DNA from: Candidatus Poribacteria bacterium
Lineage (GTDB): Bacteria > Poribacteria > WGA-4E > WGA-3G
Assembly: GCA_965215265.1 (NCBI GenBank)
Contig: OZ244048.1
Span: 1,183,121-1,247,120 of the forward strand
DNA: 64,000 nucleotides
Direction: 5' to 3'
The notes beneath the pieces are model-generated. The model was not told the origin of the DNA. It made no database searches and worked only from the letters and a program-made list of their open reading frames with translations. Made by a program: the position numbers and the translations under genes. Below, piece by piece: positions 2,933 to 53,054 of the stretch (position 1 is its first letter; every line of letters starts with the position of its first letter).

Positions 2933-3289
2933 GGATTTTTGGTGGGTCGCTCCTTTTATTGGCGCAGTGTAAAAGGTTATCTCATACCAACTGAACGGAT
3001 TTGCGTTGTTTCGCCCCGGTACTCTTTACCTACAGCAAAAACTCGTAATCCGGTCGAGATGTTTGCGCCACGAACATCTTTTGTATAACTGATTTCATCA
3101 TATCGCATATTCTGTTTTTTGTCAATGACGTTGAAAAATGAGAGCGGATATGTTAAACTTTAATGCATGCTTATCATACCTAACAAAGCAATTTAGTCTA
3201 TGTAAACCGATCAGAAGGATTGACGTTAAAAGATACGTTAAAATTGTATTCAAAAAGGAGGGCGCGCGGCAAATTAGCCATCAGCGCGC

Positions 3290-7653: not shown

Positions 7654-7728
7654 TGGCGGTGCAATTGTCTAAATCAGGATTTTAAGATTTTCAATTCAAG
7701 AACTGCGTGGTATACCCCCGACAAAAAT

Positions 7729-9444
7729 ATGTCCTATGACAGTTTAACTCTCTTTCTCGTTACAAATGAATTGCGTCAGACCCTTTTGGGCGGCACCATT
7801 CGACACATTGAACAAGCGAATCCGACGACCTTTTTGTTCAAGGCTGTACACGCCGGCAAAACGGACTGGTTCACTCTCTCAGCACATTCTGTGCATGCCC
7901 GCACGCATCTCATTCCGAAGCCTCCACCAGGACAGAAACAGTCATACTTCGCAGACTTTCTGACAACGCATCTCAAAGGCGGAAGGATCACAGCAGTCGA
8001 GCAGCTCGGATGGGACCGTATCTTAAAAATAACGATCCAGCCTATATCTGATGAGCAGATCCAGCCGACACCCAAAGCAGTGATTGCCGAATTAATGGGG
8101 AAACATAGCAACATTATCTTAATTGACGCAACCACCGATCGGATTTTGGAATGTCTCAAACATATTGACGAAAGTGTGAGCCGGCACCGAGAGGTTTTGC
8201 CCGGTGAATCCTACTGTTTGCCACCACAACAAGAGAAAGCAGATCCATTGGAACTGAATGAAGCAGGTTTTAAAGCTCTGCTTGAAAGCGAACCCCGTGT
8301 GACATGGCGTTCGCTGTTTAGCAAAATCGATGGACTCAGTCCAACCCTTTCAAAGGAAATCGTCGCACGGGCGGAGGAGGTACCCTTATGGGAAGCGTAT
8401 CGGCAGGTTATCGCTTATTTTCAATCTAAGCCTGCCGCACCGCACATCCGCTTTGATGGCAAAAATCCCGTGGCTGTATCTCCGATGCCGTTGCGACATC
8501 TTTCGGCTGCGGGCCAACGAGAAACATTTGATACTATGAGTCAGGCACTTAGTGCCTACTACGATGCAATTACTCTGAAGGAAACCGTCGCATCAGAACA
8601 ACGGGCCCTTACGCAAGCATTGGACAAACAGCGGAAGCTACTCAACCGAAAAATGAACGGACTTCGCGAAGATTTAGCACGTGCCGAAAAAGCCGAGGAT
8701 TATCGGATTCTGGGAGAACTGCTGCTCGCCAATCTGCACAATATCAAACGCGGGCAAAAACAGGTCGAATTGCAAAACTACTATACTCCAGACTTGGAGA
8801 ACTTGACGATTTCGCTTAATCCTGAACAGAGTCCCTCTGATAACGCGCAAGCGTATTTCAAGAAGTACACCAAAGCGAAGCGCGGACGTTCACGTATCCA
8901 GCAGCAACTCGCAAATACAGACGCGGAGCAAGAGGTACTACAACTGTATATCTCCAAACTCACATCAGCAGATACGCCGGACATGCTCCAACGGCTTCGT
9001 GCAGAATGCATTGAAAACGGATATATAAAAGCGCAGCGGCGTAAAAATCAGAAACGAAACGTCAGCGAAGGGCTCTTCCGAAAGTATACCTCTACCAACG
9101 GGTTTCAGATCTACGTTGGCAAAAACAGCCAATCCAACGATCTGCTCCTGCGTCAGATTGCGAAACCGCGCGATATGTGGCTACACGCCAAACAGATTCA
9201 CGGATCCCACGTCATCATCCGTAATCCCGAAAACCGGCCCGACATTCCGATGCCCACGTTGTTGCAAGCAGCGCAGCTCGCTGCCTATTTCAGCAAGGCA
9301 CACCACGCTAGCCATGTCCCTGTTGACTATACCTGGGCACGTTATGTAGTTAAACGCAAAGGCAACGTCGCCGGGTACGTCCACTACACGCATGAAAAGA
9401 CGTTATATGTGGAGCCTGCCTTGCCGTCATCAAACGGAGATTAG
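7729..9444 (+). CDS. rqcH: RqcH/NFACT-family ribosome quality control protein (FbpA-like)
   Basis: N-terminal NFACT-N, central coiled coil, C-terminal NFACT-R/DUF814 (GFQIYVGKNSQSNDLL...HGSHVII). Confidence 0.8.
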   Translation: MSYDSLTLFLVTNELRQTLLGGTIRHIEQANPTTFLFKAVHAGKTDWFTLSAHSVHARTHLIPKPPPGQKQSYFADFLTTHLKGGRITAVEQLGWDRILKITIQPISDEQIQPTPKAVIAELMGKHSNIILIDATTDRILECLKHIDESVSRHREVLPGESYCLPPQQEKADPLELNEAGFKALLESEPRVTWRSLFSKIDGLSPTLSKEIVARAEEVPLWEAYRQVIAYFQSKPAAPHIRFDGKNPVAVSPMPLRHLSAAGQRETFDTMSQALSAYYDAITLKETVASEQRALTQALDKQRKLLNRKMNGLREDLARAEKAEDYRILGELLLANLHNIKRGQKQVELQNYYTPDLENLTISLNPEQSPSDNAQAYFKKYTKAKRGRSRIQQQLANTDAEQEVLQLYISKLTSADTPDMLQRLRAECIENGYIKAQRRKNQKRNVSEGLFRKYTSTNGFQIYVGKNSQSNDLLLRQIAKPRDMWLHAKQIHGSHVIIRNPENRPDIPMPTLLQAAQLAAYFSKAHHASHVPVDYTWARYVVKRKGNVAGYVHYTHEKTLYVEPALPSSNGD

Positions 9445-9479
9445 AAAATGCCATTTTCGAAAACAATAGAGGAAAATTA

Positions 9480-12179
9480 ATGAAATACCTGTTTGAAAAT
9501 TTACGCGACGATACACAAAAGTGGCGCAGCACCGGATACCCGTGTACAGATTACCCACTCATCGCGGAAATCCTACGTTGGCAATTTGAAGGTGAACCGC
9601 AAGAGCAAATCGCCCTCAAATACCTCCGAGAACCGCAATTCCAAGCACTAGAAATCTATTGGTTCCTCAGATTGGTGCGAAAGACACCGCATATTGTCGA
9701 TCTTTACAAGCACTATTACAGCGACGATAAACGCGACTTCTTTAAAGCGTTCGGGATTCCAATCGATCCAACCGAGCTCCAATGGATTCCTAATGTTGAC
9801 ACTGTCATTGACCGGGTAAGAACTGACCCTGAATTCGTTAAACAGAAGCGAATCGAGCCCGTTCATGAGGCTGTGACGCTCCCATACCCTAGCTATATCT
9901 TCGCGCTCGCGATGGGCACCGGCAAGACGGTACTCATCGCCACTATTATTGCCACCGAATTCGCCATGGCACTTCGATATCCTGAAGGTAGCTTTATGAA
10001 AAATGCACTCGTCTTTGCACCCGGTACAACCATCATAGAGAGTTTACGCGAGATTAGCGCAGTTCCTTTCGAGAAAATCCTGCCCGCAAGCCTACACCGT
10101 GACTTCCTCGCGAATCTCAAGATGACCTATCCACAGACCGGCGCAAAAGAAATTCAAGTCCAACAAGGCAGCACTTACAATGTCATCGTCACGAATACCG
10201 AGAAAATTAGCCTCAGGGCGAACCTGACGCGACGCACGAATCAGACAGAAATGGAGTTCGAGGAAAAAGAGAAAAAAGCGAAATTAGAGGCAAACCTCCG
10301 ACTGCAAAAAATCGCAAGCCTACCCAATTTAGGGGTTTTTTCCGACGAAGCACACCATACTTACGGCAATAGAATGGATAAAGAACTCAAGCGAGTCCGT
10401 GAAACCGTCAACTACATCAATGAGGAAACGCGCCTCATCGCGGTTGTCAACACCACCGGTACGCCTTACTACAAACGGCAGATGCTCCGCGAAGTTGTCG
10501 CGTGGTACAGCCTCGGTGAAGGTATTGAGGATAATATCCTAAAAAGCCTCAATAACGGGATTATCCATTACGACATTGGTGAACGTTCTGATGAAGATGT
10601 AATCCGAGATGTGATTGTTGAATTTTTCAAGAACTACGATGGCGTTACGCTGTCCAACGGTGCAAAAGCGAAAATCGCTTTCTACTTCAAAACGCAAGAC
10701 CATCTCGGTACCTCACGTCTCCACATTGAAAGAACATTGGCTGAACTCGGCAAGAGCCCAACTCTGATACTTGTTAATACGCAGCGTTCAACTCAAACCG
10801 AGATTGACGAATTCAACCGACTTAACGATCCGGATAGTCAGAAGCGCATCCTACTCCTCATCGGTAAAGGTGTAGAAGGCTGGAATTGCCCGAGTCTATT
10901 TGCCTGTGCCTTAATTAAGGAACAGACAACAAGCAGCAACTTTGTCTTGCAAGCCTCAACGCGATGCCTCCGTCAAGTGCCCGGAAATACGCAGCCCGCC
11001 AAAATCTTTTTGGATACGAAGAACCGAAGCATTTTAGACAAGGAATTGCAGGACAACTTCGGAACTACCTTGCAAAATCTCGGTGGACACACCGCAGCTA
11101 CAGAAGAAATTGAGCTCCGTATTCGCAAGCCAGAACTACCGGAACTGCAAATCTCACGGCTAATTTCTCGTGTTGTTCGGAAGGAACAGACCTCCGGCCC
11201 CTTGCAGTTGACAATTCCGGCTGAAGGAGTAGATGTCCCACCTATTCACCGGGCGACGCTAACACCGAATTTCACAAGCAGGACATCCCGACTCATAGGT
11301 AGAACGGAAATTGACGAGATTCCTTTGATGAACAGATCCACGGATTGCTATACGCTCTCGCGGCGCATCGCAGCAAATTATCACCTCCCTTATATGCAAA
11401 CGCTCAAAAGCCTCAAACTGCTCTATCCAGAAGGTGAGGTCCCCAATACGCACCTCCACCCGCTCTACCAACAAGTGGAAAACCAGTTGCAGAATTACGA
11501 CGTAATTAACGAAGAGGTAACCGAAACCCTGGCACTCATTCGTACCCTTGATAAGGAGGGTAAGCCTGTTTTTGACGAGGAAGAAGATGGATACTACATT
11601 CACCGCTTACGTTTGCTCAAACGCACCGTAGAGCGAATGAAAGAGGGCGGCCTGTTGTTTGAAGCAGGAAACCTATTGGACGAACACGATGTCACTTTCC
11701 ACTATGCACCCTACAACTTTGATACCGTGCCAGAACGCCGCTTTTTTGAGGAAATTCTGAACACGGTCAACGCATCCGGGGACGACATCGACATCTTTCT
11801 ATTTACCGGCGGATTAACGGATCCCAACAAAACGGATTTCCACTTTGAATACAAGGGTGTCGATGGCAATTATCACCGCTATTTTCCCGACTTTGTCATT
11901 GTCAAGAAAACCGGTGCAGTTTTCATCGTCGAAATTAAGGCTGAAAGCGAACGGAACGATGAAACCGTCCAAGCCAAAAGCAAAGCAGTCGAACGTTTGC
12001 CGAAGTTGCAAGCCGCCGGTAGCGAATTGAAGTCGGTTCCACCTTTCAAATATCACGTTGTTTATACCACGACGAATCGACTCCAAGAGAATCTCGACAC
12101 GATTAGACCCGTCATAAATTGGATTCGTCCGACTGAAGACTCAGAAACAGGAGGAGCTTATGAAAATTACGCCGGTTAA
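9480..12179 (+). CDS. res: Type III restriction enzyme Res subunit (helicase + PD-(D/E)XK nuclease)
   Basis: Walker A (AMGTGKT) and DEAH box (FSDEAHHTYG). The C-terminal YFPDFVIV...VFIVEIKAE is a PD-ExK motif. The gene overlaps the downstream mod start by 20 nt. Confidence 0.8.
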   Translation: MKYLFENLRDDTQKWRSTGYPCTDYPLIAEILRWQFEGEPQEQIALKYLREPQFQALEIYWFLRLVRKTPHIVDLYKHYYSDDKRDFFKAFGIPIDPTELQWIPNVDTVIDRVRTDPEFVKQKRIEPVHEAVTLPYPSYIFALAMGTGKTVLIATIIATEFAMALRYPEGSFMKNALVFAPGTTIIESLREISAVPFEKILPASLHRDFLANLKMTYPQTGAKEIQVQQGSTYNVIVTNTEKISLRANLTRRTNQTEMEFEEKEKKAKLEANLRLQKIASLPNLGVFSDEAHHTYGNRMDKELKRVRETVNYINEETRLIAVVNTTGTPYYKRQMLREVVAWYSLGEGIEDNILKSLNNGIIHYDIGERSDEDVIRDVIVEFFKNYDGVTLSNGAKAKIAFYFKTQDHLGTSRLHIERTLAELGKSPTLILVNTQRSTQTEIDEFNRLNDPDSQKRILLLIGKGVEGWNCPSLFACALIKEQTTSSNFVLQASTRCLRQVPGNTQPAKIFLDTKNRSILDKELQDNFGTTLQNLGGHTAATEEIELRIRKPELPELQISRLISRVVRKEQTSGPLQLTIPAEGVDVPPIHRATLTPNFTSRTSRLIGRTEIDEIPLMNRSTDCYTLSRRIAANYHLPYMQTLKSLKLLYPEGEVPNTHLHPLYQQVENQLQNYDVINEEVTETLALIRTLDKEGKPVFDEEEDGYYIHRLRLLKRTVERMKEGGLLFEAGNLLDEHDVTFHYAPYNFDTVPERRFFEEILNTVNASGDDIDIFLFTGGLTDPNKTDFHFEYKGVDGNYHRYFPDFVIVKKTGAVFIVEIKAESERNDETVQAKSKAVERLPKLQAAGSELKSVPPFKYHVVYTTTNRLQENLDTIRPVINWIRPTEDSETGGAYENYAG

Positions 12180-34550: not shown

Positions 34551-34635
34551 AAATGCCGGAGTGGTGAAATCGGTAGACGCACTGGACTCAAAATCCAGCG
34601 GGCCCTAGGTCCATGTCGGTTCGAGTCCGACCTCC
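34551..34635 (+). tRNA. tRNA-Leu (anticodon CAA), class II with long variable arm, no encoded CCA
   Basis: Acceptor gccggag/ctccggc, anticodon loop ctCAAaa, long variable arm, T-arm gtcggttcgagtccgac. Confidence 0.9.
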
Positions 34636-34644
34636 GGCATCCGG

Positions 34645-37132: not shown

Positions 37133-37606
37133 TTGAAATATATTGTGAAAACTGTTAAAAAAACCACTCAGAATTCTGTGATAACTGTTAATCGTAAGGC
37201 GCGTTTTGACTACCATTTGCAAGAACGGTATGAAGTAGGTATTGTTTTGCAAGGCACAGAGGTGAAGGCGATTCGTGCGGGGCAGTTCAATCTTACTGAT
37301 AGTTACGCTCGAATTAGCGAAGGCGAGATATTTCTTATAGATGCGCATATCGGGTTGTATAAACACGGCAACCGTGCAAATCATGAACCGAAACGTCCGA
37401 GGAAGCTGCTGCTGCACCGGCGGGAAATCAAGAAGCTTGACCGCTCGATCCGTTCAAAAGGGACGACTCTCGTGCCAACACGTGCTTATTTTAGTAATGG
37501 AAAGGTTAAGGTGGAATTAGCAGTAGCAATCGGTAGGAGGCTGTACGATAAGCGAGATCAGCTCCAGAACGAAGCAGCCGCGCAACAGATTCGGGAATAC
37601 CGTTAA
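37133..37606 (+). CDS. smpB: SsrA-binding protein SmpB
   Basis: Full-length SmpB similarity (NRKARFDY...LQGTEVKA...KLLLHRREI). An alternative GTG start lies at 37145. Confidence 0.9.
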   Translation: MKYIVKTVKKTTQNSVITVNRKARFDYHLQERYEVGIVLQGTEVKAIRAGQFNLTDSYARISEGEIFLIDAHIGLYKHGNRANHEPKRPRKLLLHRREIKKLDRSIRSKGTTLVPTRAYFSNGKVKVELAVAIGRRLYDKRDQLQNEAAAQQIREYR

Positions 37607-37795: not shown

Positions 37796-38145
37796 GGGGG
37801 TGAAAAGGTTTCGACGAAGGTAGATGAGATATAGGTTGCATGCCGAGGACTCCGCAGGCCTCGTTAAATTGGCGGAACAACTATAATTGCTGATGAAGAA
37901 TTAGCACTAGCTGCTTAATGCGGCTACGCTTTGCCGACTTGCTGCCCGTCAGGGAAGCAAAAGCGTCGCAATACGGGCTAGTAGTTCGTCTTTTCTCAAG
38001 GAACGAGCTGCGAACCATAACTTGAGATAGCCTATTGTGAGACGTGCACAAGCGTGTCTGATAGGTGAATTTTAAACTTGTGATAAGCATGTAGTAGCCT
38101 CTATTGAAATGCTTTCGGACGCGGGTTCGACTCCCGCCACCTCCA
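37796..38145 (+). ncRNA. ssrA: tmRNA (ssrA), ~350 nt
   Basis: 5' gggggtgaaaaggtttcgacg. tRNA-like 3' end ggacgcgggttcgactcccgccacctcca. Internal tag ORF ...ADEELALAA-taa. Lies immediately downstream of smpB. Confidence 0.85.
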
Positions 38146-38170
38146 CTTCCTACTCGGGGCATGGATAGAA

Positions 38171-42107: not shown

Positions 42108-43025
42108 ATGAGATTCAAAACCACGAATTCACTTAACCCCAATTTTACGGTGCTACATCAAGATTGCACGGAAATGTTAAATAGCAAGATACTTGCATCG
42201 AGTATTGACACGACTTTCCTTGATCCGCCGTTTAATCAGGACAAAGCATACAAGACATGGGATGATAATATGCCAGCGGAAATGTATTGGGCCTGGATGC
42301 AGGAAATATGCACCAAGATTTACGCGTTGACTTCCCATGGCGGTGCCATCTATTTCATGCAACGCGAGAAAAATACGGAATTCGTCTTGCAGTGTTTGCG
42401 CGAGTCCGGATGGAACTTCCAAAACCTGATTGTCTGGAAAAAGAAGACCTCGGCTGTTCCTGGAATGAAGCGTTTTGGCAAGCACTATCAGATTATCGCC
42501 TTTGCAACCAAAGGCACCTCGCCGCGCGTTTTTCATCGGCTGCGAATTGATCCACCGCTGCCTTCTAGCTACAAGCACCCCCGGAAAAACGGAATGTTTG
42601 TCACAGATGTTTGGGATGATATTCGTGAGTTAACATCAGGCTATTTTGCAGGCGATGAAGCATTGCGAGACGCAGAAGGGAATCGGTTACACAAGCAACA
42701 GGCACCGGTTCAACTCTTGCTGCGGATCCTCCTCTCTTCAACAAACCCCGGCGATGTCGTACTAGATCCGTTCGCTGGTTCCGGAACGACATTGGTTGTT
42801 GCTGAACAGTTAGGACGGAAGTCAATAGGGATTGAACTAGACCCGTTTAACGTTGCGTTAATTCAAAAACGGATTGCTGAACAGAGAACAGCGGACGATG
42901 TGTCGCGATTTTTCAAAGATTACGCGTGTACTCCGGATTTGGAAACAATTTGGGGAACACCTGAAGCGACCTCCACGGATCCGCTGGTTTCCAAACAGAT
43001 AACACTTTTTGAGTCAAATCGATAG
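42108..43025 (+). CDS. Beta-class DNA methyltransferase (N6-adenine or N4-cytosine), type II
   Basis: Motif IV FLDPPF near the N-terminus and motif I FAGSGTT near the C-terminus. Confidence 0.8.
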   Translation: MRFKTTNSLNPNFTVLHQDCTEMLNSKILASSIDTTFLDPPFNQDKAYKTWDDNMPAEMYWAWMQEICTKIYALTSHGGAIYFMQREKNTEFVLQCLRESGWNFQNLIVWKKKTSAVPGMKRFGKHYQIIAFATKGTSPRVFHRLRIDPPLPSSYKHPRKNGMFVTDVWDDIRELTSGYFAGDEALRDAEGNRLHKQQAPVQLLLRILLSSTNPGDVVLDPFAGSGTTLVVAEQLGRKSIGIELDPFNVALIQKRIAEQRTADDVSRFFKDYACTPDLETIWGTPEATSTDPLVSKQITLFESNR

Positions 43026-43859
43026 ATGGTTAACTCAATTTATCATTTCTTCGCACATTTATGCCTCAAAAGAGAAAAACTTCTTTCAGGAACTCCTCTA
43101 GAGAACTTTCCATTTGATAAGCGAATGCTATCTTGCGAAAATAAAGGGCGTTTTCCAGATTTAGCTATCAGACTCAATCAAGCAGATCGACTATTTAGTG
43201 GTGGCGAATTAATTGAACTCAAGGATAGTAAAACCTATTCGGTGGCTTCTTTTAATTCTACGATTCCGACAGGCGAAAAGGATATTCGCAGGCTAATCAA
43301 AGGGACAGAAAACACCATTCGGACACAGATGCAAAAAGCAGGTAATGATATACTTTCCTTACCCATGCGCCAAGTTTTCTATCTCATTCGTGGCAGGAAG
43401 AAGTCAAATGTGAAAATTTGCTTGACTCATGGGAAGTTTTTTGAGACCGTTCCTGTTTCAACTTTGATTTCAGAGTCATTTGCCCAAGCTTTAGAAGAGC
43501 GGTTAAACGAACTTGGAGAATCGTTATCTACATCAATCAGACAAAAATTATTAGACATATTCAGCGAACAGCAAACTTTTAGTAGAACTAGAAATGTAGA
43601 AGATGCCTCAGTGCGGCTCCGTTTTCGTATTATGACTGAAGTTAAAGCCGGAGGAAATATTTTAAATCCAAATCAGTACCCACAAATTGGCGACAATACG
43701 TTGAACTTTGCTGTTCCATGTCACAGAAATATAAATATAGAAAAGCATCGACAGAACAACCAGATGAAAATCGCTTTTGACTCAATGGAATGCTCACAGC
43801 TATTTTCGCAGATGAAAGTTTTTATCCTTTTGGAGATGAACGTCAGTGCGGCACTCTGA
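43026..43859 (+). CDS. Putative type II restriction endonuclease (PD-ExK), cognate to the upstream MTase
   Basis: ATG immediately follows the MTase TAG stop. FPDLAI...(19 aa)...ELIELKDSK fits PD-(D/E)XK. Markedly AT-rich relative to its neighbours. Confidence 0.5.
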   Translation: MVNSIYHFFAHLCLKREKLLSGTPLENFPFDKRMLSCENKGRFPDLAIRLNQADRLFSGGELIELKDSKTYSVASFNSTIPTGEKDIRRLIKGTENTIRTQMQKAGNDILSLPMRQVFYLIRGRKKSNVKICLTHGKFFETVPVSTLISESFAQALEERLNELGESLSTSIRQKLLDIFSEQQTFSRTRNVEDASVRLRFRIMTEVKAGGNILNPNQYPQIGDNTLNFAVPCHRNINIEKHRQNNQMKIAFDSMECSQLFSQMKVFILLEMNVSAAL

Positions 43860-43979
43860 AATGATTTCAGTATCGCAGGAGGGTGTTTTTCAGAAGTATG
43901 GGATGAAAAAACAGGCACCTTTGCCGTAACTAAGGTGCCTGTTTTGTGAGTGTTTGGCTCTGTCGATGCACCGATCGGA

Positions 43980-45215
43980 CTATTCACTATGCCAAGTATA
44001 GGAGTTACCGTTGCTGGTGCATCCGCCGTTGCCGTTGGTGCATTTGGTGAACGTGGCACCGCATCCTGACCGGGAACAAGTATAGGTTGTTGCGTGCCGA
44101 GCGACAGCTGTAGCGTTGCAGCTCCAGTAAGTGTGTCCCGCACTGCAAGTCGTCTGGTGTGCGGTTGTGCTGGATGCGACACGGTTGTAAGTACAGCGTC
44201 CGTCCCCGCTGTAGGAATTTCCATAGCGGACGGTGCTGCCACTACCACTGCTCGAACCGCTGCCCAAACCGCTGCCACTACCACTGCCCGAACCACTGCC
44301 AGAGCCGCCGTTGCCCGAACCACTGCCGCTGCCGCTGCTACTGCCCGAACCACTACCACTGCTGCCGTCGTTGTAATAGGGAGCATCATAACCGGCACAC
44401 ACGCAATATCGATGTCCGCAGGGGCCGTTTGTTGTGGAGGTGCCCCGGGTGGTGCATGTCCCTGTATCTGTGCACCAATTGAAGGTGGGGTTATTGGCAC
44501 AGCCGGAACTACTAGAACCTGATCCGCTAGAAATAGAGTCAGAAACGTTAACCGAAAAGGACGAAGTTAGAGAGTCATTGGATACAGGATGCAAAATGCC
44601 TGCAGACCAACGCCAATTTTGCATGATCCCAACGACAATAGCGGAATTAGGTCCTGTCGAATTGAAGCCAATACTTAGACCCCTTGTGCTGCCACCGTAG
44701 TTCTCAACAGTCCGAGATCTTGCCGTTGCAGAGCCGCTGGCTGTCCTGTTAAAGGTACCCGTGTTTATCTCGTTGGCGTACCCCCCGCTAAGGATAGGCA
44801 GGGGCCCACCAGTAACACCTATCGCGGCAAAGTTGTAAGCAGGACAGAGTGTTTCTACTCTGAAAGAGAACTTATCGTTGCTAGCCGCTTTCAGTCGAGG
44901 CCCACTTCGCCAATCTCCAATATCAGCATCCTGCGATTGCCCAAACAGCGAAAACACGACCTCACCGTACCCGGATGCGATGATACTTATCTCAAACGTC
45001 CAACTCTCAGGAGGTTTGCCGGGTGACCAGGATTCCGAGAGAATGCGATTTGTGCCACTCTCTATCGTCCGAGTCCCGCTGTATGCCCTACTGCTAGGTA
45101 TTGATGAGGTGATGGTAGCCCCTTGGTGTATGGTGAGTCCTCGAGCGTTGTTGATGTGTAAACCACAGACAGCTAGAGTAACAATTAAAACAATCAGACT
45201 TAATTTTGGCATCAT
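43980..45215 (-). CDS. Secreted protein with Gly/Ser linker and Cys-rich C-terminal modules
   Basis: Signal peptide MMPKLSLIVLIVTLAVCG, ~250-aa N-domain, long (GS)n linker encoded by repetitive DNA, and two Cys-rich segments. Confidence 0.5.
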   Translation of the reverse strand: MMPKLSLIVLIVTLAVCGLHINNARGLTIHQGATITSSIPSSRAYSGTRTIESGTNRILSESWSPGKPPESWTFEISIIASGYGEVVFSLFGQSQDADIGDWRSGPRLKAASNDKFSFRVETLCPAYNFAAIGVTGGPLPILSGGYANEINTGTFNRTASGSATARSRTVENYGGSTRGLSIGFNSTGPNSAIVVGIMQNWRWSAGILHPVSNDSLTSSFSVNVSDSISSGSGSSSSGCANNPTFNWCTDTGTCTTRGTSTTNGPCGHRYCVCAGYDAPYYNDGSSGSGSGSSSGSGSGSGNGGSGSGSGSGSGSGLGSGSSSGSGSTVRYGNSYSGDGRCTYNRVASSTTAHQTTCSAGHTYWSCNATAVARHATTYTCSRSGCGATFTKCTNGNGGCTSNGNSYTWHSE

Positions 45216-45226
45216 TTTTATCTCCT

Positions 45227-45988
45227 TTAATCGTAAAACCTTTCTTCATAAAATTCAAATAGGTGTCCTATACCCATTAACTCGTAGAGTTCTCGGGTTG
45301 CTTCCTCATCACGCAGCCGGGCCTCTTCTTGAGGAATCTCGTCACCGTAACCAATAAAACCATAAGGGCGTGCTGGAAGTTCGCCTTGGTTTGCGTCAAC
45401 CAATTCCTGCATGTCCACCAAAATGTTTTGCATGGCAAAGGAATTGCCCGCTGCTTCTGCACGGTGGTACGCATCCATCAATGCCTTGTAACGTTCAAGG
45501 TCTGCCGGATTTGGAGCAAAGTCTATCCGGAGACTATAATTGACAAGAACGGGCCTATTTCGATACAGCCTGCGAGCGTTGCCCATGCAATCTCGAATGT
45601 GTCGGTATTCGCTTGTCCATGGGGGTTCGTCTCCCCATTCTTCTCGGTATGCTTGGGCCCATTGTTCCCACTGCTTGTCGCGTCTGGCTTGTTCCTCTGG
45701 AAAGAGTTTGGGCGCGGTAGGTATTTCGGGAATGGATACTAGCTCCGCGCCTCCGGTCTCTGTGTCGGTGTTTGCTACATCAGTGTTCACGATGGGAACT
45801 CTCGCATCACTTGAAGTGCTTTCGTCGGCCTGTACAGCTTGTGTAGTAGCAGGCAGCTTGGGTAACGATTCCTCAAACCTTTTCTTTTGCCACTCCGCCC
45901 AGAAGTGCACGCCGAAGACCAAAAGAAGGCAGCCCAGAAGAGTCAGCATCACAACTCGATTCGTCAAGACTTCTTTTACGAGTTTCAT
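45227..45988 (-). CDS. TM-anchored protein, paralog 1 (conserved N-terminal ~55 aa, unique C-terminal domain)
   Basis: Start at MKLVKEV with GGAGGA RBS (the ORF track extends to 46021). The N-terminus is near-identical to 46493-47308. Confidence 0.5.
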   Translation of the reverse strand: MKLVKEVLTNRVVMLTLLGCLLLVFGVHFWAEWQKKRFEESLPKLPATTQAVQADESTSSDARVPIVNTDVANTDTETGGAELVSIPEIPTAPKLFPEEQARRDKQWEQWAQAYREEWGDEPPWTSEYRHIRDCMGNARRLYRNRPVLVNYSLRIDFAPNPADLERYKALMDAYHRAEAAGNSFAMQNILVDMQELVDANQGELPARPYGFIGYGDEIPQEEARLRDEEATRELYELMGIGHLFEFYEERFYD

Positions 45989-46140
45989 GGAGTTTCCTCC
46001 GGTGTTGGAGCACAGCCGCATCCACGGTTGCGGGGTATGGGCACGATATCTTTATCAGTAGAAGATGCTGCTGCAGCGGCTGTCACGGCGGTAGGCGCGG
46101 CACCGCAACATCCGCTTGTCGGCTCAAGCCTCGCAGGGGT
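45890..46140. repeat. ~250-bp direct repeat (second copy 47210-47460, ~95% identical)
   Basis: Spans the 3' end of the small Cys-rich gene, the ATGA junction and the 5' end of the TM-protein gene in both cassettes. Confidence 0.85.
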
Positions 46141-46488
46141 GGATTTCGTCGCTGTCGGTGGGAAAAATATTAAGAAACTCACCTTTTCAACAACTATACC
46201 TGGGTTGAGCTGCAGTCCGGTGTCAAGAGATCCTTCCGCCCGGACACATACCCATCCGATCCCGTACGCCTCGGTTTCAGCTTTGACAAGTAGATCATAA
46301 CTTGCTTGTCTTGTGTCTGTCCGTTTAAGTCTATTGTTTACAAACTCATAGACATCAACAACATCGGCTTTCCCCGGATCCGGTGTCGCCGTCGGTGTTA
46401 CAACGGGCCCCGACATCCGTATATCTGCGTGCACGAAGTGGACAAGCCCTGCCAAAAATACGAAAAACAGAAAATATCTATATTTCAT
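45985..46488 (-). CDS. Small secreted Cys-rich protein, paralog B
   Basis: Signal peptide MKYRYFLFFVFLAGLVHFVHA. The C-terminal 45 aa (...SGCCGAAPTAVTAAAAASSTDKDIVPIPRNRGCGCAPTPEETP) are shared with 47305-47641. Its TGA overlaps the next gene's ATG (ATGA). Confidence 0.45.
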   Translation of the reverse strand: MKYRYFLFFVFLAGLVHFVHADIRMSGPVVTPTATPDPGKADVVDVYEFVNNRLKRTDTRQASYDLLVKAETEAYGIGWVCVRAEGSLDTGLQLNPGIVVEKVSFLIFFPPTATKSTPARLEPTSGCCGAAPTAVTAAAAASSTDKDIVPIPRNRGCGCAPTPEETP

Positions 46489-46492
46489 CACA

Positions 46493-47308
46493 TTATCTCC
46501 TTTCAAGTGTAGCACGGATTTCCGCAATGAGTTGGTCAAAAACATTGTAATCGATACGGAACGATTCGGGGGATGGCGGAAGTAAATCTGCTGCGACATC
46601 ATCCATGCGCTGTATTAATGCCCTTTCATCTTCTGGGGTCATCGGATCACTCGCCCTACGACTGACAGCCGCAGTTATCGTGGGTCTCGGGCCATTCGTC
46701 TTTTCGTAGAGTTCGCGCTTCCATGCTAACCCCAATTCAACCTCTTCCGGCGAGAGATTGTAGAGTTTGATGACAAGCGGATTGTCTATTGCTCGTAAAC
46801 AACTATACCTTGCGAGCTCGTCGTCGGTAAGTTGGTGATAGTTCCCGTATCCTTCCCCCCAGGCGACCTGGATAATTGGATCTTTGTATTTTACAAGTTG
46901 GGCATCGCCGTCCCCGATTTTTGCATACCGATAGCCGGGGGGTGGAGGTTGGAGTCCGAATGACTCATAAAAGGCGAGTCGTGCTTTTTCTTGGGAGGCG
47001 ATCTCTTCCTCTGAAAGCAGGCCCATATCGATGGCGATCTGCTCCTGTTGCGATTTGGGTGTCGCCGAGGCACCCGGGGGAGGGGCCCTGTGGAAGTATC
47101 CTGCTTGTGTGGTGTTGCCGGTGTCGGGTTGTGCGGTAGGTAGATCGGCTTGTGCCTCCTGTATGGACGCTGGCAGCTTGGGTAACGATTCCTCAAACCT
47201 TTTCTTTTGCCGCTCCGCCCAGAAGTGCACGCCGAAGACTAAAAGAAGGCAGCCCAGAAGGGTTAGTATCACAACTCGATTCGTCAAGACTTCTTTTACG
47301 AGTTTCAT
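46493..47308 (-). CDS. TM-anchored protein, paralog 2
   Basis: Same N-terminal 55 aa as paralog 1, then unrelated sequence. The ORF track extends to 47341. Confidence 0.5.
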   Translation of the reverse strand: MKLVKEVLTNRVVILTLLGCLLLVFGVHFWAERQKKRFEESLPKLPASIQEAQADLPTAQPDTGNTTQAGYFHRAPPPGASATPKSQQEQIAIDMGLLSEEEIASQEKARLAFYESFGLQPPPPGYRYAKIGDGDAQLVKYKDPIIQVAWGEGYGNYHQLTDDELARYSCLRAIDNPLVIKLYNLSPEEVELGLAWKRELYEKTNGPRPTITAAVSRRASDPMTPEDERALIQRMDDVAADLLPPSPESFRIDYNVFDQLIAEIRATLERR

Positions 47309-47641
47309 GGGGTTTCCTCCGGTGTTGGAGCACAGCCGCATCCACGGTTGCGGGGTATGGGCACGATATCTTTATCAGTAGGAGGTGCTGCTGCAGCGGC
47401 TGTCACGGCGGTAGGCGCGGCACCGCAACATCCGCTTGTCGGCCCAAGCCTCGCAGGGGCGGGGCCGCAGCCGCCACAGCGGGTAGCAGGGTCTACGCCG
47501 TCACGTGCCGCAGGGGTGATGGCCGCGTCGGCGGTAGCTCGGACTCTAGGGCTCTGGGCAACGATGAAGCCGCTCCAGAGTGCCGTTGCGAAGACAATTA
47601 TCGCGAGGGCAACTTTCACGGGTTTTGTAAGTGTCGGCATT
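47305..47641 (-). CDS. Small secreted Cys-rich protein, paralog A
   Basis: TM/signal segment (KPVKVALAIIVFATALWSGFIVAQSP), then CGGCG..., then the conserved Cys-rich tail. ATGA overlap with paralog 2. The start coordinate is approximate. Confidence 0.4.
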
Positions 47642-48508
47642 TGTGGCCTCCTATAAGTTATCAACTGTTATGACTTGGGGAAAGGGGTATTGCATCAGAA
47701 AGCAACAAGCGTTTATCGGTTCTCGAACAGAAGCTGCCTTCCATTCTATAAAGCGGCAAATACCCCGGTAGACGCAGTCTGTGACTTTGGCAAATATGGT
47801 GGTGCCCGTCCGGTAGGGACGCAGTAGAAGCGTGCACAGCACAAAAGGAATCGTGCGTGGAGAAAAATGGAGCCTCGTGCCCAAACAAGCAGAGCCCGGT
47901 ATTGTGACTTAAGAGTAATTTTTGAGAAGGGGGGTTAACCAGGTGTTAACCAATAGTAAATTGCATTCGATAGCATGCACAGGCAGAAGATGCCTATGCG
48001 CCCACCTCGTGTAGTAGCCGTTGAGGGAACTCACGTTTCTAACGGATGAAGTTAGTAGAAGTTTCTCTGTCACTCGTGTTCCTTGTTCCATGCTGAGATC
48101 GGACTTATAAGAATTATACTACATTTTCATACAAAATGCAAATTTGTTTTACACTTTATGAATATTAGACGATATTTCCTGAAAAATGCAAATTTTTTTA
48201 TAGTAGATTTTAGAATGACTGATACCTTGCTTATTGGCGGGCTGCCAGCGGTGGCGAGAGGTCTTCACTAGACTCACGGCGAGGGGGTTCCACAGCAGAG
48301 CGTTGTCTTGAAAAGGGGTTCTCATAATTTTGGGCGGCACCCGTTTGGAGGTCTATCTCCTTTTCATAATAATTCCTTCTTCTTATGAAGTCTGTATGTC
48401 AGGAGGGATTCTACTACAATACTTCAAACTTTCCTTCGCTTTTTCCACAAGAACCTGCTTATCACAAGCCTGCTACAAAAAATAGGAGTAAATGAGAGAG
48501 GATGTTGC

Positions 48509-48537
48509 TTGACATTTTCAGATTTACGTGGTATTAT
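48509..48537 (+). promoter_or_regulatory. Near-consensus sigma70 promoter upstream of the ABC operon
   Basis: TTGACA-17 nt-TATTAT, about 60 nt upstream of the 48598 ATG. Confidence 0.55.
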
Positions 48538-48597
48538 TTAAATATATTTTATCCCTTTGCGGTCAGGTGACCGCACCTATATGGTTAGATAACGTTT

Positions 48598-49524
48598 ATG
48601 ATTGAAGTTAGAGAACTTACAAAATCCTACGGCCCGACGGTCGCGGTTAACCGTGTCTCTTTCGAGGCGAATGCGGGGGAGGTCCTTGGGTTCCTCGGTC
48701 CGAACGGTGCTGGGAAGACGACAACGATGCGCCTCCTCACCTGCTATCTGTCAGCAGATTCAGGAAGTGCAACGGTTTCTGGTTACGATGTGTTTGAGGA
48801 ATCGGTTGAGGTTCGAAAGCGAATCGGCTACCTACCTGAAAGTGCTCCACTCTATACAGATATGGGTGTAATTGAATATCTGGATTTTATGACGCAGGTC
48901 CGTAATCTTCCGAAGAACGTCCGGAAAGTGCGTATTCGGGAAGTGGTTGAAATCTGTGGATTGGAGGACGTTATCCAAAAGGACATTGGGGAGCTCTCCA
49001 AGGGCTATCGGCAGCGTGTGGGATTAGCACAAAGTCTCATCCATGATCCGCCCATTCTGATTTTAGATGAACCCACCTCAGGGCTTGATCCGAGCCAAAT
49101 TATTGAAATTCGCAATCTGATAAAGAATATTGGACAAGAGAAGCTGGTTCTCTTCAGCACACACATTTTGCCAGAGGTGTCTGCGACATGTAGCCGCATT
49201 CTGATCATCAACGATGGCACGATTGTTGCGAACGGGACACCGGCTGAGTTAGCCAGTCAAGCGGAGGGCGAAGAGATAGTATATCTTCGCATCCGTGGTT
49301 CTAAAGCGGCGATCGACACGAAATTAGACGAATTGGATTTTGTTTCACAGTGGGAGCATCTCGAAACCGAGGACGGGGTAGTCAGTTATCAAGTGACTGC
49401 ACCACAGGGCTGTCAAGCCTCTGAGACCTTATTTCACGTTGTTGTAGATAACCAATGGAGTTTGACGGAGCTCCGTCAAGAGTCGGTTGATTTAGAGGAT
49501 GTATTCCTGAATTTGACAAAGTGA
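48598..49524 (+). CDS. ABC transporter ATP-binding protein (GldA-like, ABC-2 type)
   Basis: Walker A GPNGAGKTT, signature LSKGYRQR, Walker B ILILDEP. Confidence 0.85.
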   Translation: MIEVRELTKSYGPTVAVNRVSFEANAGEVLGFLGPNGAGKTTTMRLLTCYLSADSGSATVSGYDVFEESVEVRKRIGYLPESAPLYTDMGVIEYLDFMTQVRNLPKNVRKVRIREVVEICGLEDVIQKDIGELSKGYRQRVGLAQSLIHDPPILILDEPTSGLDPSQIIEIRNLIKNIGQEKLVLFSTHILPEVSATCSRILIINDGTIVANGTPAELASQAEGEEIVYLRIRGSKAAIDTKLDELDFVSQWEHLETEDGVVSYQVTAPQGCQASETLFHVVVDNQWSLTELRQESVDLEDVFLNLTK

Positions 49525-49598
49525 GGGAGTAGTGTGCTAGATTAGCATTGCGATGCGAAAATTGCGCGATGCTTAGAACAGACAACAAAAAACAGATC

Positions 49599-50315
49599 AT
49601 GACCAATATTATAGCGATCTTTAAGAAGGAATTTAGAAGTTATTTCAATTCGCCCATTGCGTATATTTTTATTACCTTTTTCTTGGGCATTTCTTCATGG
49701 CTCTTTTTTCGTGGTTTTTTCCTGATTAACCAGGCGGAAATGCGTGGGTTTTTCGGGTTAATGCCGTGGCTTTTCTTATTTTTCATTCCTGCTGTTACAA
49801 TGAAACTCTGGGCAGAAGAAAATAAACTTGGTACAGTCGAGATCTTGATGACGTTACCCATTCGGGATTACGAGGTGGTTCTCGGCAAATACTTAGCGAG
49901 TTTTGGGCTGCTTTTGGTGACGACGTTGCTCTCGCTGGGACTTCCTCTATCAGTGATTCATCTGGGGGATCCAGATGGGGGGACGCTAATAAGCGGTTAC
50001 ATCGGGCTTTTATTGATGGGCGGTGCGTACCTCGCGATAGGGTTGTTCACGTCAACGTTGACAGAGAATCAGATTGTCGCCTTTATCTTCGGGATTACTA
50101 CCTGTTTTGTACTATTGATTATCGGGGAGGACATTGTGCTTTTCAATGCACCGAATTGGCTTTTCCCGATTTTTAGTTATCTCGGTTTAGGGGCACATTA
50201 CAGTAGCATTCTGCGGGGTGTACTGGACTCCCGCGATATTATCTATTATCTATCGGTTATCGGATTCTTTCTCTATATGAGTTCGGTGTCCGTTGAGAGT
50301 CGAAAATGGAGGTAA
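49599..50315 (+). CDS. ABC-2 family permease (GldF-like)
   Basis: Six predicted TM helices. Start at MTNIIAIFKKEF (ORF open from 49548). Confidence 0.65.
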   Translation: MTNIIAIFKKEFRSYFNSPIAYIFITFFLGISSWLFFRGFFLINQAEMRGFFGLMPWLFLFFIPAVTMKLWAEENKLGTVEILMTLPIRDYEVVLGKYLASFGLLLVTTLLSLGLPLSVIHLGDPDGGTLISGYIGLLLMGGAYLAIGLFTSTLTENQIVAFIFGITTCFVLLIIGEDIVLFNAPNWLFPIFSYLGLGAHYSSILRGVLDSRDIIYYLSVIGFFLYMSSVSVESRKWR

Positions 50316-51978
50316 AGTTTTGACATCGGAAGGACTCAAATCGGCTTCATCGAAACACCTCAAATACGGTGGCAACGCGGCCGTATTTGTTTTGCTTTTG
50401 TTTGGCATCCTTGTGCTGTTAAATTTCTTGTCCACGCGCCGCTTCATTCGCGCAGATCTGACTGAGGACAAACGGTATACTATCTCGGATGCTACTAAAA
50501 ATGTGCTTGGCACTTTAGACGATATTGTAACGATTACTGCCTATTTTTCAACGGAACCCGCAGAAGTTGCACAAATCCGCCTGAGTGTAAGGGATGTACT
50601 CGACGAATATAATGCATTCTCTCAGAAACTTCAGATTGATTTTGTGAATCCTGCAAGATTGGATGAAGGACAGAAACAGGAGCTCCGGTTCAAGGGGGTG
50701 CCAGAAGTCCAAATCAATGTCTTTAAGGAAGATAAAGCAGAAATCGCGAATGTTTACTTGGGCATCAGCATCGGTTACAGCGGCAAGGAGGAAATCTTGC
50801 CTATTATACAATCTACCGACAACTTGGAGTATGAGTTAACCTCAACCATTCTGAAGGTTACGACGAAAGAGGCGAAAACGGTCGGATTCTTGACGGGGCA
50901 TGACGAGTTAGATATCCAAGCACAAACGTCTCAGGGATTGCGCGAACGGTTAGATAAAAACGCGAAAGGGCAATATAACCTGACTACCGTGGATCTTCAA
51001 GGAGGTCAACCGGTGTCTGACACCGTCACGACCTTAGTCGTCGCAGGCCCAAAACGGGCGTTGGCGGAACGTGAAAAATATGAACTCGATCAGTTTATTA
51101 TGCACGGCGGGAGAGCAATCTTCTTAGTAGATCCGCTGCAGCTTCCTGCCGGAGGTTTACAAGGGACTCCGCTTAGCACTGGCTTGAACGATCTGCTTAC
51201 GCATTACGGTGTTAAATTGGGAAATAATGTGTTAGTCGACCGGCGGTTCCACGATAACGCGCGGTTCCAGCAAGGATTCATGACTGTTTTTCAGCCGTAT
51301 CCGTTTTTTGTTAAAATTATTAAGCCGAATTTCTCTACAGAGAGCACCGTGACGAATCAGTTAGAGGGGTTAACGTTACCATGGACGAGTTCGCTGGAAG
51401 TAGTTGCAGTGGAAGGTGTCACTGGGACAGTTTTGGCAAAAACGAGTGAGTTTGGACAGAGCATCGAAGGGTTTTATAACCTCGCACCCAATTTTCCGAT
51501 ACCGCAGGCCGAATTACAAGCGTATCCGGTTGCGGTGGCTTTAGAAGGAAATTTTAAAAGTTTCTACGCAGATAAAGAAATTCCGCCGGTGGAAACTGGA
51601 ACGGATACCCCGGATGAGACTGCAGAAACGGAGATTGCACCTTCGCAAGACGCACTCGCAAGCAGCCGACTTACTGAAAGTGAACCGACGCAAATTGTTG
51701 TGGTTGGCACAGCGCAATCATTGGCACAGATGCGGCCCGATGGAACCGATTTTTTCTTAAATACGGTTGACTGGTTGACGCTCGGAGATGCTTTAATCGG
51801 CATCCGGTCGCGGGTGGTTACTGAACGTCCACTACGGGCAGCCACTGAGGTTGAGAAAAACTTAATAAAATACATTTGTATCGTTGGCATCCCACTGATT
51901 GTGGTTATCTTTGGGTTGCTCCGTTATTTCTTGAAAAGGAGGGCAAAACGGTTGGTTGAGACCTACGGTTCCTTGTAA
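50293..51978 (+). CDS. GldG-like ABC-transporter auxiliary protein
   Basis: N-terminal TM, large periplasmic domain, C-terminal TM. Family-typical context after GldA/GldF. The start is uncertain (TTG 50320 after GGAGG is plausible). Confidence 0.7.
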   Translation: MRVENGGKVLTSEGLKSASSKHLKYGGNAAVFVLLLFGILVLLNFLSTRRFIRADLTEDKRYTISDATKNVLGTLDDIVTITAYFSTEPAEVAQIRLSVRDVLDEYNAFSQKLQIDFVNPARLDEGQKQELRFKGVPEVQINVFKEDKAEIANVYLGISIGYSGKEEILPIIQSTDNLEYELTSTILKVTTKEAKTVGFLTGHDELDIQAQTSQGLRERLDKNAKGQYNLTTVDLQGGQPVSDTVTTLVVAGPKRALAEREKYELDQFIMHGGRAIFLVDPLQLPAGGLQGTPLSTGLNDLLTHYGVKLGNNVLVDRRFHDNARFQQGFMTVFQPYPFFVKIIKPNFSTESTVTNQLEGLTLPWTSSLEVVAVEGVTGTVLAKTSEFGQSIEGFYNLAPNFPIPQAELQAYPVAVALEGNFKSFYADKEIPPVETGTDTPDETAETEIAPSQDALASSRLTESEPTQIVVVGTAQSLAQMRPDGTDFFLNTVDWLTLGDALIGIRSRVVTERPLRAATEVEKNLIKYICIVGIPLIVVIFGLLRYFLKRRAKRLVETYGSL

Positions 51979-52076
51979 GTTTCGCTGCGTTCTGGCTTAG
52001 TTATACACGGGGCTGTATTTTTCTGTGTTTATCCAGGGCGCTATATTATTCTTGCCAACCGTATCCACTACGAAAA

Positions 52077-53054
52077 ATGAAAACGAGACAACTTCTGATT
52101 TTTGCAGGGGTTTTTGTTGTTTTGGCACTCGTTGTCCTGATTTTTGAGAACCCTTTCGGACAGACTGAGTATCAAAAGAAGATTCAGACAGCAGGGCCCC
52201 TCTTTCCAAAATTTAATAAAGCGCAGGTGGAAAAAGTAGAAATTCTTTCGGACAGTACCACAACAACGCTTAAAAAGGAAAATGACGCATGGCTTGTTGC
52301 TTCCATGGATAATTACCCGGCGGATGCCGAAGGCGTGGAAGAGTTATTGAACAAAGTGACTGAATTCAAGAATACGCAGCGCGTCTCTAACAACCCAGAC
52401 AAGCAAGCTGAGTTCGAGGTAGATAGCACCGGGGTAGAGGTGAAGTTGATGGACGCAAGCGATAAGATATTAGTGCATCTGTTCATTGGAAAAACCACAC
52501 CTGGGTTCCTGAGTAGTTATGTACGTGCTGCGGATTCCAATGATGTTTACGTTGCACAAGGTGCTTTACAAGCTGTGTTTGATAAAGGTTCGCGGACCTG
52601 GAAAGACCGCACGCTCTTTGACTTTAACAAAGGAATTGTAACGCAGGTTAACATCACGTCTCCGGAAGAGACGGTTGAGCTGCGGTTGGATGCTGATGCA
52701 AAATGGCAGATGCTGCAACCGATAGCGTCGGCTGTTAAACAGAGTGAGGTTGACAACCTTCTAACTACGTTCAGCCAATTAGATACAGATGATTTTGCTG
52801 AAGTGAAGGTGTCACTTGCTAACTACGGGTTAGAGTCGCCGGAGTCTTCAATATCTGCAGTTTTGAATGATGGTACCACAGCGACATTGCACATCGGCAA
52901 AGAAGAGGAGGGGAAACGTTACGTCAAACGTGAAGACAAAGCGACCGTCTTCCGGCTCTTCACATCCAATGTGAATCGTTTAATCAAGAAGTCTGAAACG
53001 CTGCGGGAGGAGATACCGGCTTCGGAAACAGAGGAAGCGATGCAGACTGAGTAG
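52077..53054 (+). CDS. DUF4340-domain protein
   Basis: N-terminal TM plus DUF4340-like repeats. This family canonically follows gldG-like genes. Confidence 0.5.
   Translation: MKTRQLLIFAGVFVVLALVVLIFENPFGQTEYQKKIQTAGPLFPKFNKAQVEKVEILSDSTTTTLKKENDAWLVASMDNYPADAEGVEELLNKVTEFKNTQRVSNNPDKQAEFEVDSTGVEVKLMDASDKILVHLFIGKTTPGFLSSYVRAADSNDVYVAQGALQAVFDKGSRTWKDRTLFDFNKGIVTQVNITSPEETVELRLDADAKWQMLQPIASAVKQSEVDNLLTTFSQLDTDDFAEVKVSLANYGLESPESSISAVLNDGTTATLHIGKEEEGKRYVKREDKATVFRLFTSNVNRLIKKSETLREEIPASETEEAMQTE

Follow-up and report, generated by a model that had tools for sequence, protein, structure and literature searches.

A putative cassette system in Candidatus Poribacteria: constant gene segments around a variable two-protein core, with apparent recombination between tandem copies

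Gene layout, repeated junction and a chimeric reading frame

We analyzed a 64,000-nucleotide (nt) stretch of a Candidatus Poribacteria chromosome (contig OZ244048.1, positions 1,183,121 to 1,247,120; hereafter the window), which carries a locus of five consecutive open reading frames (ORFs) on its minus strand between 43.9 and 47.7 kb. By sequence reading, these ORFs have good ribosome-binding sites and follow one another in the order A2-B2-A1-B1-C. A sequence-only reading of the same DNA had described the first four as a tandemly duplicated two-gene cassette, each copy pairing a small Cys-rich secreted protein (A) with a membrane-anchored partner (B) around a conserved junction. We propose that the locus is what remains of two old paralogous cassettes of a larger, multi-gene family and that their constant segments recombined recently; we put the probability of this anatomical and evolutionary account as a whole at about 0.75. 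The features of the locus, with lengths in amino acids (aa), are as follows.

47305..47640, minus strand: A2, 111 aa, ATG start after AGGAGG (sequence reading)
46493..47308, minus strand: B2, 271-aa bitopic protein, "type-2" member of the Poribacteria B family
45985..46488, minus strand: "A1", 167-aa chimeric ORF (strain comparison and homologs)
45227..45988, minus strand: B1, 253-aa bitopic protein, anchor shared with B2, C-terminal domain of "type-1"
43980..45215, minus strand: C, 411-aa secreted protein encoded directly after B1, outside the region covered by the sequence-only reading
47172..47462, minus strand: constant junction, copy 2 (repeat search and blastn)
45852..46142, minus strand: constant junction, copy 1, A tail plus B anchor (blastn)
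44200..44512, minus strand: Cys module and Gly/Ser-linker region of C, homologous to, but diverged from, its counterpart in gene C' of contig L001 (see below)
43906..43941, minus strand: intrinsic-terminator-like hairpin with a 10-bp GC-rich stem, a 10-nt loop and T6

The two translationally coupled pairs reported earlier are present: each A stop codon overlaps the following B start as ATGA (47305-47308 and 45985-45988), with GGAGGA upstream. An alternative TTG start for A2 at 47664 was judged less likely. Hydropathy analysis gave a single N-terminal hydrophobic segment in each of the four proteins. In B1 and B2, the hydropathy peak places the transmembrane (TM) anchor at aa 12-30; in A2, a hydrophobic anchor or signal at aa 10-28 is followed by a Cys/Pro/Ala-rich tail containing CGGCGP, GCCGAAP and GCGCAP. 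No credible family match was obtained for A1, A2, B1 or B2 in Pfam, NCBIfam, PADLOC or PHROGs, in agreement with the earlier statement that none of them has a recognizable family. The terminator-like hairpin lies 39 nt past the stop codon of C, and its loop, being longer than 8 nt, kept it out of the output of our consensus scan, which found no minus-strand terminator-like site inside the gene series. With a terminator after C, A2-B2-A1-B1-C is probably a single operon that likely ends at this hairpin.

The near-identical stretches of about 95% described in the sequence-only reading are real. A repeat finder returned 45825-46124 versus 47145-47444 (300 nt, 94%), and blastn self-alignment refined the block to 45852-46142 versus 47172-47462 (291 nt, 96.6% identity, 10 mismatches, no gaps, E = 6e-140). 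Identity ends abruptly on both sides, and blastn detected no other DNA similarity above chance between the two cassettes. The block encodes the final ~50 aa of A (94% aa identity) and the initial ~46 aa of B; the earlier figures of 45 aa for the small protein and ~55 aa for its partner were roughly right in size and had been swapped.

Comparison with sister strains clarified the nature of A1. A2 is present in three contigs, and B2 is encoded by two contigs besides the window's own, the metagenome contigs L001 and L002 (ENA ERZ21849000 and ERZ21848999). Both are 99.8% identical to window positions 57306-46160, a span that runs through A2 and B2 and 329 nt into A1, and their match to the window picks up again from 44512 downwards. 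Between 46160 and 44512, L001/L002 have 243 nt versus 1648 nt in the window. They carry a single A2-B2-C' cassette in which C' is intact: the L001 ORF that starts like A1 runs past the break point of the window and encodes a 371-aa secreted protein, with a ~195-aa head followed by a Cys module, a Gly/Ser linker and a Cys/His tail, as in the window's C. The C' head has strong full-length homologs in loci L040, L023 and L033 of other Poribacteria. A1 can accordingly be divided into three parts joined in frame: at 46160-46488 a signal peptide with the opening ~110 aa of a C'-type head, at 46143-46159 a stretch of 17 unique nt, and at 45985-46142 a conserved A tail of ~51 codons that ends in the ATGA overlap with B1. 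A1 is an in-frame chimera of a truncated C'-type gene and an A tail, not a second small protein, as shown by the intact C' of L001/L002, which begins as A1 does, and by the full-length homologs of the C' head elsewhere. The N-terminal part of A1, which had been taken for a variable domain of the small protein's own, corresponds to the first 110 aa of a truncated C'. A1 thus offers a practical lesson, namely that an in-frame fused gene fragment can pass for a novel small protein. The same comparison bears out the earlier suggestion of a cassette-type system, in that the structure of the locus differs between strains whose flanks are 99.8% identical.

The other end of the rearranged region lies in C. 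Counted as mismatches per 100 nt, the window's C and the L001 C' differ at ~110 positions between 44560 and 44200 and are near-identical below ~44200, which places the right-hand recombination boundary in the linker or the tail module. The Gly/Ser linker of C (44233-44368, minus strand) is encoded by imperfect 12-nt repeats whose length and sequence differ between the window and L001/L002, and the short-read contig L002 ends within these repeats. Such a repeat-encoded linker is likely to be a hotspot for slippage and recombination.

The B, C and D proteins across Poribacteria

Single-sequence searches of 5.8 billion clusters with B1 and A2 recovered only each other, A1 being the sole homolog of A2. 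The B family surfaced only through a neighbor-guided profile search seeded with five B proteins. It comprises at least 232 proteins of 245-280 aa without a Pfam domain, and all named members are annotated as "hypothetical protein, Candidatus Poribacteria". A genome scan located 36 B loci, several per genome and some in tandem arrays, all of them in metagenome-assembled genomes of Poribacteria. A profile scan of genome contigs with the B1/B2 alignment alone gave no match, meaning either that the source genome is absent from the GTDB representatives or that this anchor class is rare, and a scan of JGI metagenomes with B1 gave no match.

When B1 and B2 are left out of the C-terminal-domain profile, it still matches both of them (E = 7e-34 for B1 and 7e-29 for B2), while direct BLASTP reaches only E = 0.026. 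The profile matches indicate that the B1 and B2 domains are homologous and represent old paralogs. This overturns the earlier view that the C-terminal domains of the partners are unrelated; the sequence-only reading had itself named detectable homology between the divergent parts as evidence that would count against it, and for the B domains such homology is found. Homology of the B domains explains their divergence, not the near-identical junction.

Members of the family have a single N-terminal TM anchor that begins in the first ~10 residues and leads into a low-complexity linker; their C-terminal alpha/beta domain, of ~160 aa, shows the pattern [WFHY]G-x2-PP ... Y ... G ... P ... FAPT-x-EE-x-RY ... 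L. B1 (253 aa) and B2 (271 aa) have all of these features. Each is also directly followed by a C gene of matching type: B1 by C, and B2 by the C' remnant, which is intact in L001. The closest relatives of B1 are the B proteins of L003, L008, L006a and L009, and those of B2 are the B proteins of L040, L023 and L033. Among the proteins of loci L003-L006, those of 262 and 272 aa are plainly B1-like and one of 254 aa is B2-like. An AlphaFold2 model of B1 has a predicted local distance difference test (pLDDT) score of 83 overall and 87-98 in the domain, with a helix at residues 2-41 and disorder at 42-95. The model matched no fold in the PDB, and PDB sequence searches with B, C and D were blank apart from linker noise. 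We considered an extracytoplasmic function (ECF) anti-sigma factor as an identity for B and rejected it, since the TM helix begins at about residue 10, leaving no N-terminal cytoplasmic domain, and no sigma factor gene adjoins the window's cassettes.

Downstream of B, the C protein starts with a signal peptide and a variable all-beta head (aa ~28-229); a Cys module (CANNPxxNWC...GPCGHxYC), a Gly/Ser linker and a C-terminal Cys/His module come after these. Across 117 representative homologs, these parts behave as separable modules (head, aa ~6-235; Cys module, aa ~225-300; Cys/His module, aa ~328-410), and one homolog, P0010, carries an fn3 domain. The C head is modeled by AlphaFold2 with pLDDT >95, and a fold search with it yielded only generic matches resembling immunoglobulin (Ig) and fibronectin type III (FN3) domains. 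The C-terminal Cys/His module also ends proteins with LRR, Big_1 and Peptidase_M15 domains; it is a mobile module and a candidate anchoring or sorting domain. It spans ~80 aa, follows the pattern CGNSWSG..C..GR...S..EHQ.TC..GHTYWSCN...H....C.R.GCG.T.T.C and has no Pfam model. Seen among the C-tail homologs P0012, P0017, P0020, P0023, P0027 and P0030, it is found on LRR plus Big_1 proteins and on Peptidase_M15 proteins, at times in multiple copies (14 stretches in P0006).

In most loci, profile hidden Markov models find B, then the Cys-module protein C, then a protein of ~237 aa that we call D, which has a single N-terminal TM helix and a conserved NNLFRPLGW... beta domain. Weak, sub-threshold matches to the Pfam family T2SSC occur in 6 of 11 D members (E = 3e-5 to 1e-2); the D of L006 scores 20.9 bits, under the Pfam cut-off of 27 bits. 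In its single N-terminal TM helix, its short beta domain and its weak similarity to the T2SSC HR domain, D is like GspC and PilP. It differs from them in scoring below the Pfam cut-off, in the lack of a secretin or other type II secretion system (T2SS) or type IV pilus (T4P) genes in the scanned flanks, and in having no PDB sequence match. The two-gene cassette of the sequence-only reading was thus drawn too narrowly: the comparative evidence points to A-B-C as the real unit, with D added in other genomes.

A small ORF upstream of B is present in most loci and encodes an N-terminal hydrophobic segment and a Cys/Pro-rich tail. In L003-L005 it is an 86-aa gene that overlaps a 262-aa B by 4 nt (of the ATGA type in L003), with C next. 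L006 has two tandem sets, B-C-D and A-B-C-D, and contig OZ253447.1 (L028/L034) has at least five B-C units in ~15 kb (~1435-1451 kb). One B-like ORF of this last array has no anchor, and the array also contains a sigma-70 gene, which sits just before its final cassette. We also considered one class of A protein as an HMA metal-binding domain and rejected it; the resemblance was seen by eye only and had no Pfam support.

The layout that the sequence-only reading had recognized, a constant segment between variable parts, recurs in other Poribacteria, where high-identity junctions accompany divergent cores. Tandem cassettes in L011, L020, L026 and L035 share segments comprising A plus the B 5' end that are 81-87% identical, and in the L028/L034 array segments of 320-620 nt that join the C 3' end, the spacer and the B 5' end are 94-99% identical. 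In L006, a TARA Oceans scaffold, positions 2054-3109 and 6983-8038 are 99.7% identical over 1056 nt, covering the C tail and the whole of D; the two D proteins are identical, though the cassettes differ in B and C-head type. L006 is an independent case of constant-segment homogenization. Taken across loci, the constant parts are the A tail/B anchor and the C tail/D, and the variable core is the B domain together with the C head. Literature searches for the B family or the cassette retrieved no description. We conclude that A-B-C(-D) is a new, unannotated, Poribacteria-specific cassette family which, though similar in logic to known constant-flank/variable-core systems, belongs to none of them.

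Co-variation of B and C types and possible function

The two halves of the variable core vary together. Across 27 cassettes, B domains score on average 188 bits against each other when the accompanying C heads are related versus 12 bits otherwise, and B-domain and C-head similarity are tightly correlated (Spearman 0.55, p = 3e-29). The B1 relatives in L003, L008, L006a and L009 pair with the C heads closest to the window's C, and the B2 relatives in L040, L023 and L033 pair with C'-type heads. This co-variation fits a physical pairing of B with C.

On this basis we tentatively propose that the cassettes encode variable exported or displayed C proteins, each with a cognate membrane-tethered B partner, a proposal that we regard as possible and still short of probable. 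The Sec-exported C proteins would combine variable heads with constant tails for anchoring or sorting, through which they would be exported or displayed; the periplasmic domain of each B would bind or handle its own C head as a tethered chaperone, receptor or anchor, and the set of paralogous cassettes would let the cell vary the proteins that it exports. In a wider and more doubtful form, the proposal becomes a phylum-specific export or display system in which B would be type-specific for the C head, the constant A tail/B anchor and C tail/D would link every B-C pair to shared machinery, and recombination would generate strain-level repertoires. A surface or export role is pointed to by the Ig-like exported heads, the shared Cys-rich tails, the GspC-like companion, the matched variable domains, the recombining flanks and the differences between 99.8%-identical strains. 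As a side observation, the cassette of L003 that is closest to B1 and C is followed, in this lineage only, by genes for a PMT_2-type glycosyltransferase, a GT2 protein and an LPG_synthase_TM protein (7506-10965), so C proteins could conceivably be glycosylated on their Ser/Gly-rich linkers.

Toxin/immunity had been named as an example of what such an architecture might encode. Here C would be a secreted polymorphic toxin, B its membrane-tethered cognate immunity protein and the junction a site for module swapping. The adjacent, co-varying parts of B and C speak for this idea, as do the multi-copy, strain-variable cassettes, the resemblance of the constant flanks and the truncated, fused A1 to orphan modules, and the Peptidase_M15 domain on some proteins that bear the C tail module. 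However, searches of A, B and C against Pfam, NCBIfam and PADLOC found no toxin domain, no known immunity domain and no delivery domain (Rhs, FHA, PAAR, LXG or MafB), and no genes for type V, VI or VII secretion systems were among the ORFs scanned within ~3.5 kb on each side of ~30 loci. The gene order and domain order also fit poorly. What varies in C is its N-terminal beta-sandwich of Ig/FN3-like type and not an enzymatic domain at the C-terminus, which is constant; at 411 aa and with a plain Sec signal, C has no large N-terminal delivery region; the putative immunity gene lies upstream, not downstream, of the putative toxin gene, which is followed by a terminator; and every B carries the same anchor whatever its type. 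We therefore consider a toxin-immunity function unlikely.

In form, the locus is nevertheless like the CdiA-CT/CdiI, Rhs-CT/RhsI and MafB/MafI systems, where constant segments surround a variable, adjacent and co-varying two-protein core arranged in cassettes, with tandem copies, truncated fused fragments and strain variation through homologous recombination at the constant parts. It is unlike them in lacking delivery and toxin domains and any demarcation motif, in having its Ig-like variable domain at the N-terminus of the exported protein and an upstream partner anchored by a helix constant across the family, and in that all families involved are Poribacteria-specific and unannotated.

Poribacteria are abundant, uncultured sponge symbionts, and to our knowledge little is known of their interaction with host cells, phages or neighbors. 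The locus opens onto a large phylum-specific, multi-copy and unannotated family, with at least 232 B proteins, more than 100 relatives of C and arrays of up to five units. If the pairing of B with C is physical, the cassettes would represent a new specificity-pair system and a source of symbiont surface diversity; if the export or display proposal is true, recombination would yield repertoires of surface or host-interaction proteins in sponge symbionts.

Origin of the junction and surroundings of the locus

The near-identity of the two junction copies requires an explanation of its own. The simplest alternative to recent exchange is that the cassettes are plain ancient tandem paralogs whose junction was kept by purifying selection only. 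The B domains are indeed old paralogs, and the B anchor is under strong family-wide purifying selection, being ~70% aa-identical between any two family members. Third-codon positions tell a different story: their identity in the B anchor averages 0.65 within genomes and 0.57 between genomes, while in the B part of the window's junction ~42 of ~46 are identical and four of the five differences fall at third positions. In the 155-nt A part, four of five differences are non-synonymous, the opposite of strong purifying selection. Since the third-codon positions are almost identical, purifying selection alone is insufficient; the total of only 10 differences in 291 nt and the abrupt ends of identity also argue against it. 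Nucleotide-level conservation by a cis-acting RNA was likewise rejected (fold z-score 0.26 and no Rfam match in the junction). Plain paralogy is thus very unlikely, and the pattern indicates a DNA segment of recent shared ancestry, probably through gene conversion or recombination, superimposed on long-term selection on the anchor. A recent duplication of the whole unit is at odds with the window's sequence.

Recent exchange can be placed in a simple history. In the window, the type-2 cassette (A2-B2-C') comes first and the type-1 cassette (A-B1-C) second; they are old paralogs, each with orthologs in other Poribacteria. The simplest ancestor would have carried two full cassettes, A2-B2-C'-A1-B1-C. 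In L001-type strains, recombination between the tails of C' and C, which are homologous, would have removed the segment from the C' tail to the C head. In the window's strain, an in-frame deletion would have removed the remainder of C' and the head of A1, cutting C' after codon ~110; the A1 stop still overlaps the B1 start, and translational coupling could persist. The junction would have been homogenized or recombined recently between the two old cassettes. More generally, the constant segments would serve as substrates for homologous recombination that duplicates, deletes and reshuffles the variable core.

Several points weigh against this account. The direction of change could be the reverse, with a foreign segment (A tail-B1-C head) inserted into an L001-like C' instead of deletions. 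Only one recorded contig has the two cassettes with A1 and B1; searches for exact copies of B1, A1 and C turned up no second contig encoding them, hence neither a donor nor an intact two-cassette ancestor. As to the unit itself, the A proteins fall into at least four classes without detectable mutual similarity and may not be a single family, the D gene is absent from the window's cassettes, and B would co-vary with C as well if these neighboring genes were simply inherited together.

An assembly artefact, in which mis-joined haplotypes or a duplicated collapse produced the second junction copy and the A1 fusion, would account for the single-contig record of A1/B1 and for the other structure in two assemblies of near-identical strains, but is unlikely, given that the junction copies have 10 differences and occupy distinct coding contexts, both in frame, that the source is one 4.83-Mb contig, that L001 has 243 nt missing from the window so that neither structure is a collapse of the other, that the C' and A fusion partners share no long k-mer at the joint, that B1 and its C have same-order orthologs in other Poribacteria, and that tandem cassettes with conserved junctions occur in many independent assemblies.

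Among recombining loci, close known systems are the gene-conversion surface families, such as Neisseria pilE/pilS and opa, Mycoplasma vsp/vlp and Borrelia vls: like them, the Poribacteria cassettes form paralog repertoires with conserved ends and variable cores, show signs of recent exchange between copies, and are gained and lost among close strains. They are unlike these families in that each unit is a complete co-transcribed multi-gene cassette, not an expression site with silent partial copies, and in that two proteins make up the variable unit. Nor did we see an invertible promoter, a recombinase or a phase-variable repeat. In the window, the two cassettes appear to form a single operon whose B genes are complete and which has ribosome-binding sites, and no partial silent cassette copies were found within the 64-kb window.

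The surroundings of the cassettes differ from genome to genome. A conserved genomic neighborhood was considered and dropped, as the flanks at ~30 loci consist of unrelated housekeeping genes. Genes for sigma-70 r2/r4 proteins lie directly upstream of A-B-C in some loci (L009 5560-6351, L034 6850-7704 and L007 1-79), and sigma-70 is the commonest Pfam family among upstream neighbors (5 of 72 ORFs), although in a minority of loci. This may reflect dedicated regulation of a subset of cassettes or merely a high density of sigma genes.

In the window, a transfer-messenger RNA (tmRNA) gene lies at 37796-38148 (plus strand; Rfam RF00023, 194 bits), adjoining an ORF at 37133-37606 (plus strand) annotated as SmpB in L001, and a tRNA gene at 34555-34639. 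The 3' end of tmRNA is a classic site of island integration, and the cassette locus lies ~6 kb beyond it. Between the two, at 42108-43859 (plus strand), are a type II N6/N4 DNA methyltransferase (PADLOC MTase_II, E = 3e-40) and, after it, a 277-aa ORF without a family, which is probably a restriction enzyme and lies in a low-GC stretch (0.37-0.41 versus ~0.47-0.5 in its surroundings). The two genes converge on gene C and are also found in L001. On the other side, ~950 nt without genes (47641-48597), in which each strand has promoter-like sites, separate the cassette operon from a divergent set of four genes at 48598-53054 (plus strand), which, by the Pfam labels of L001, encode an ABC ATPase, an ABC-2 permease, an ABC_transp_aux protein and a DUF4340 protein.

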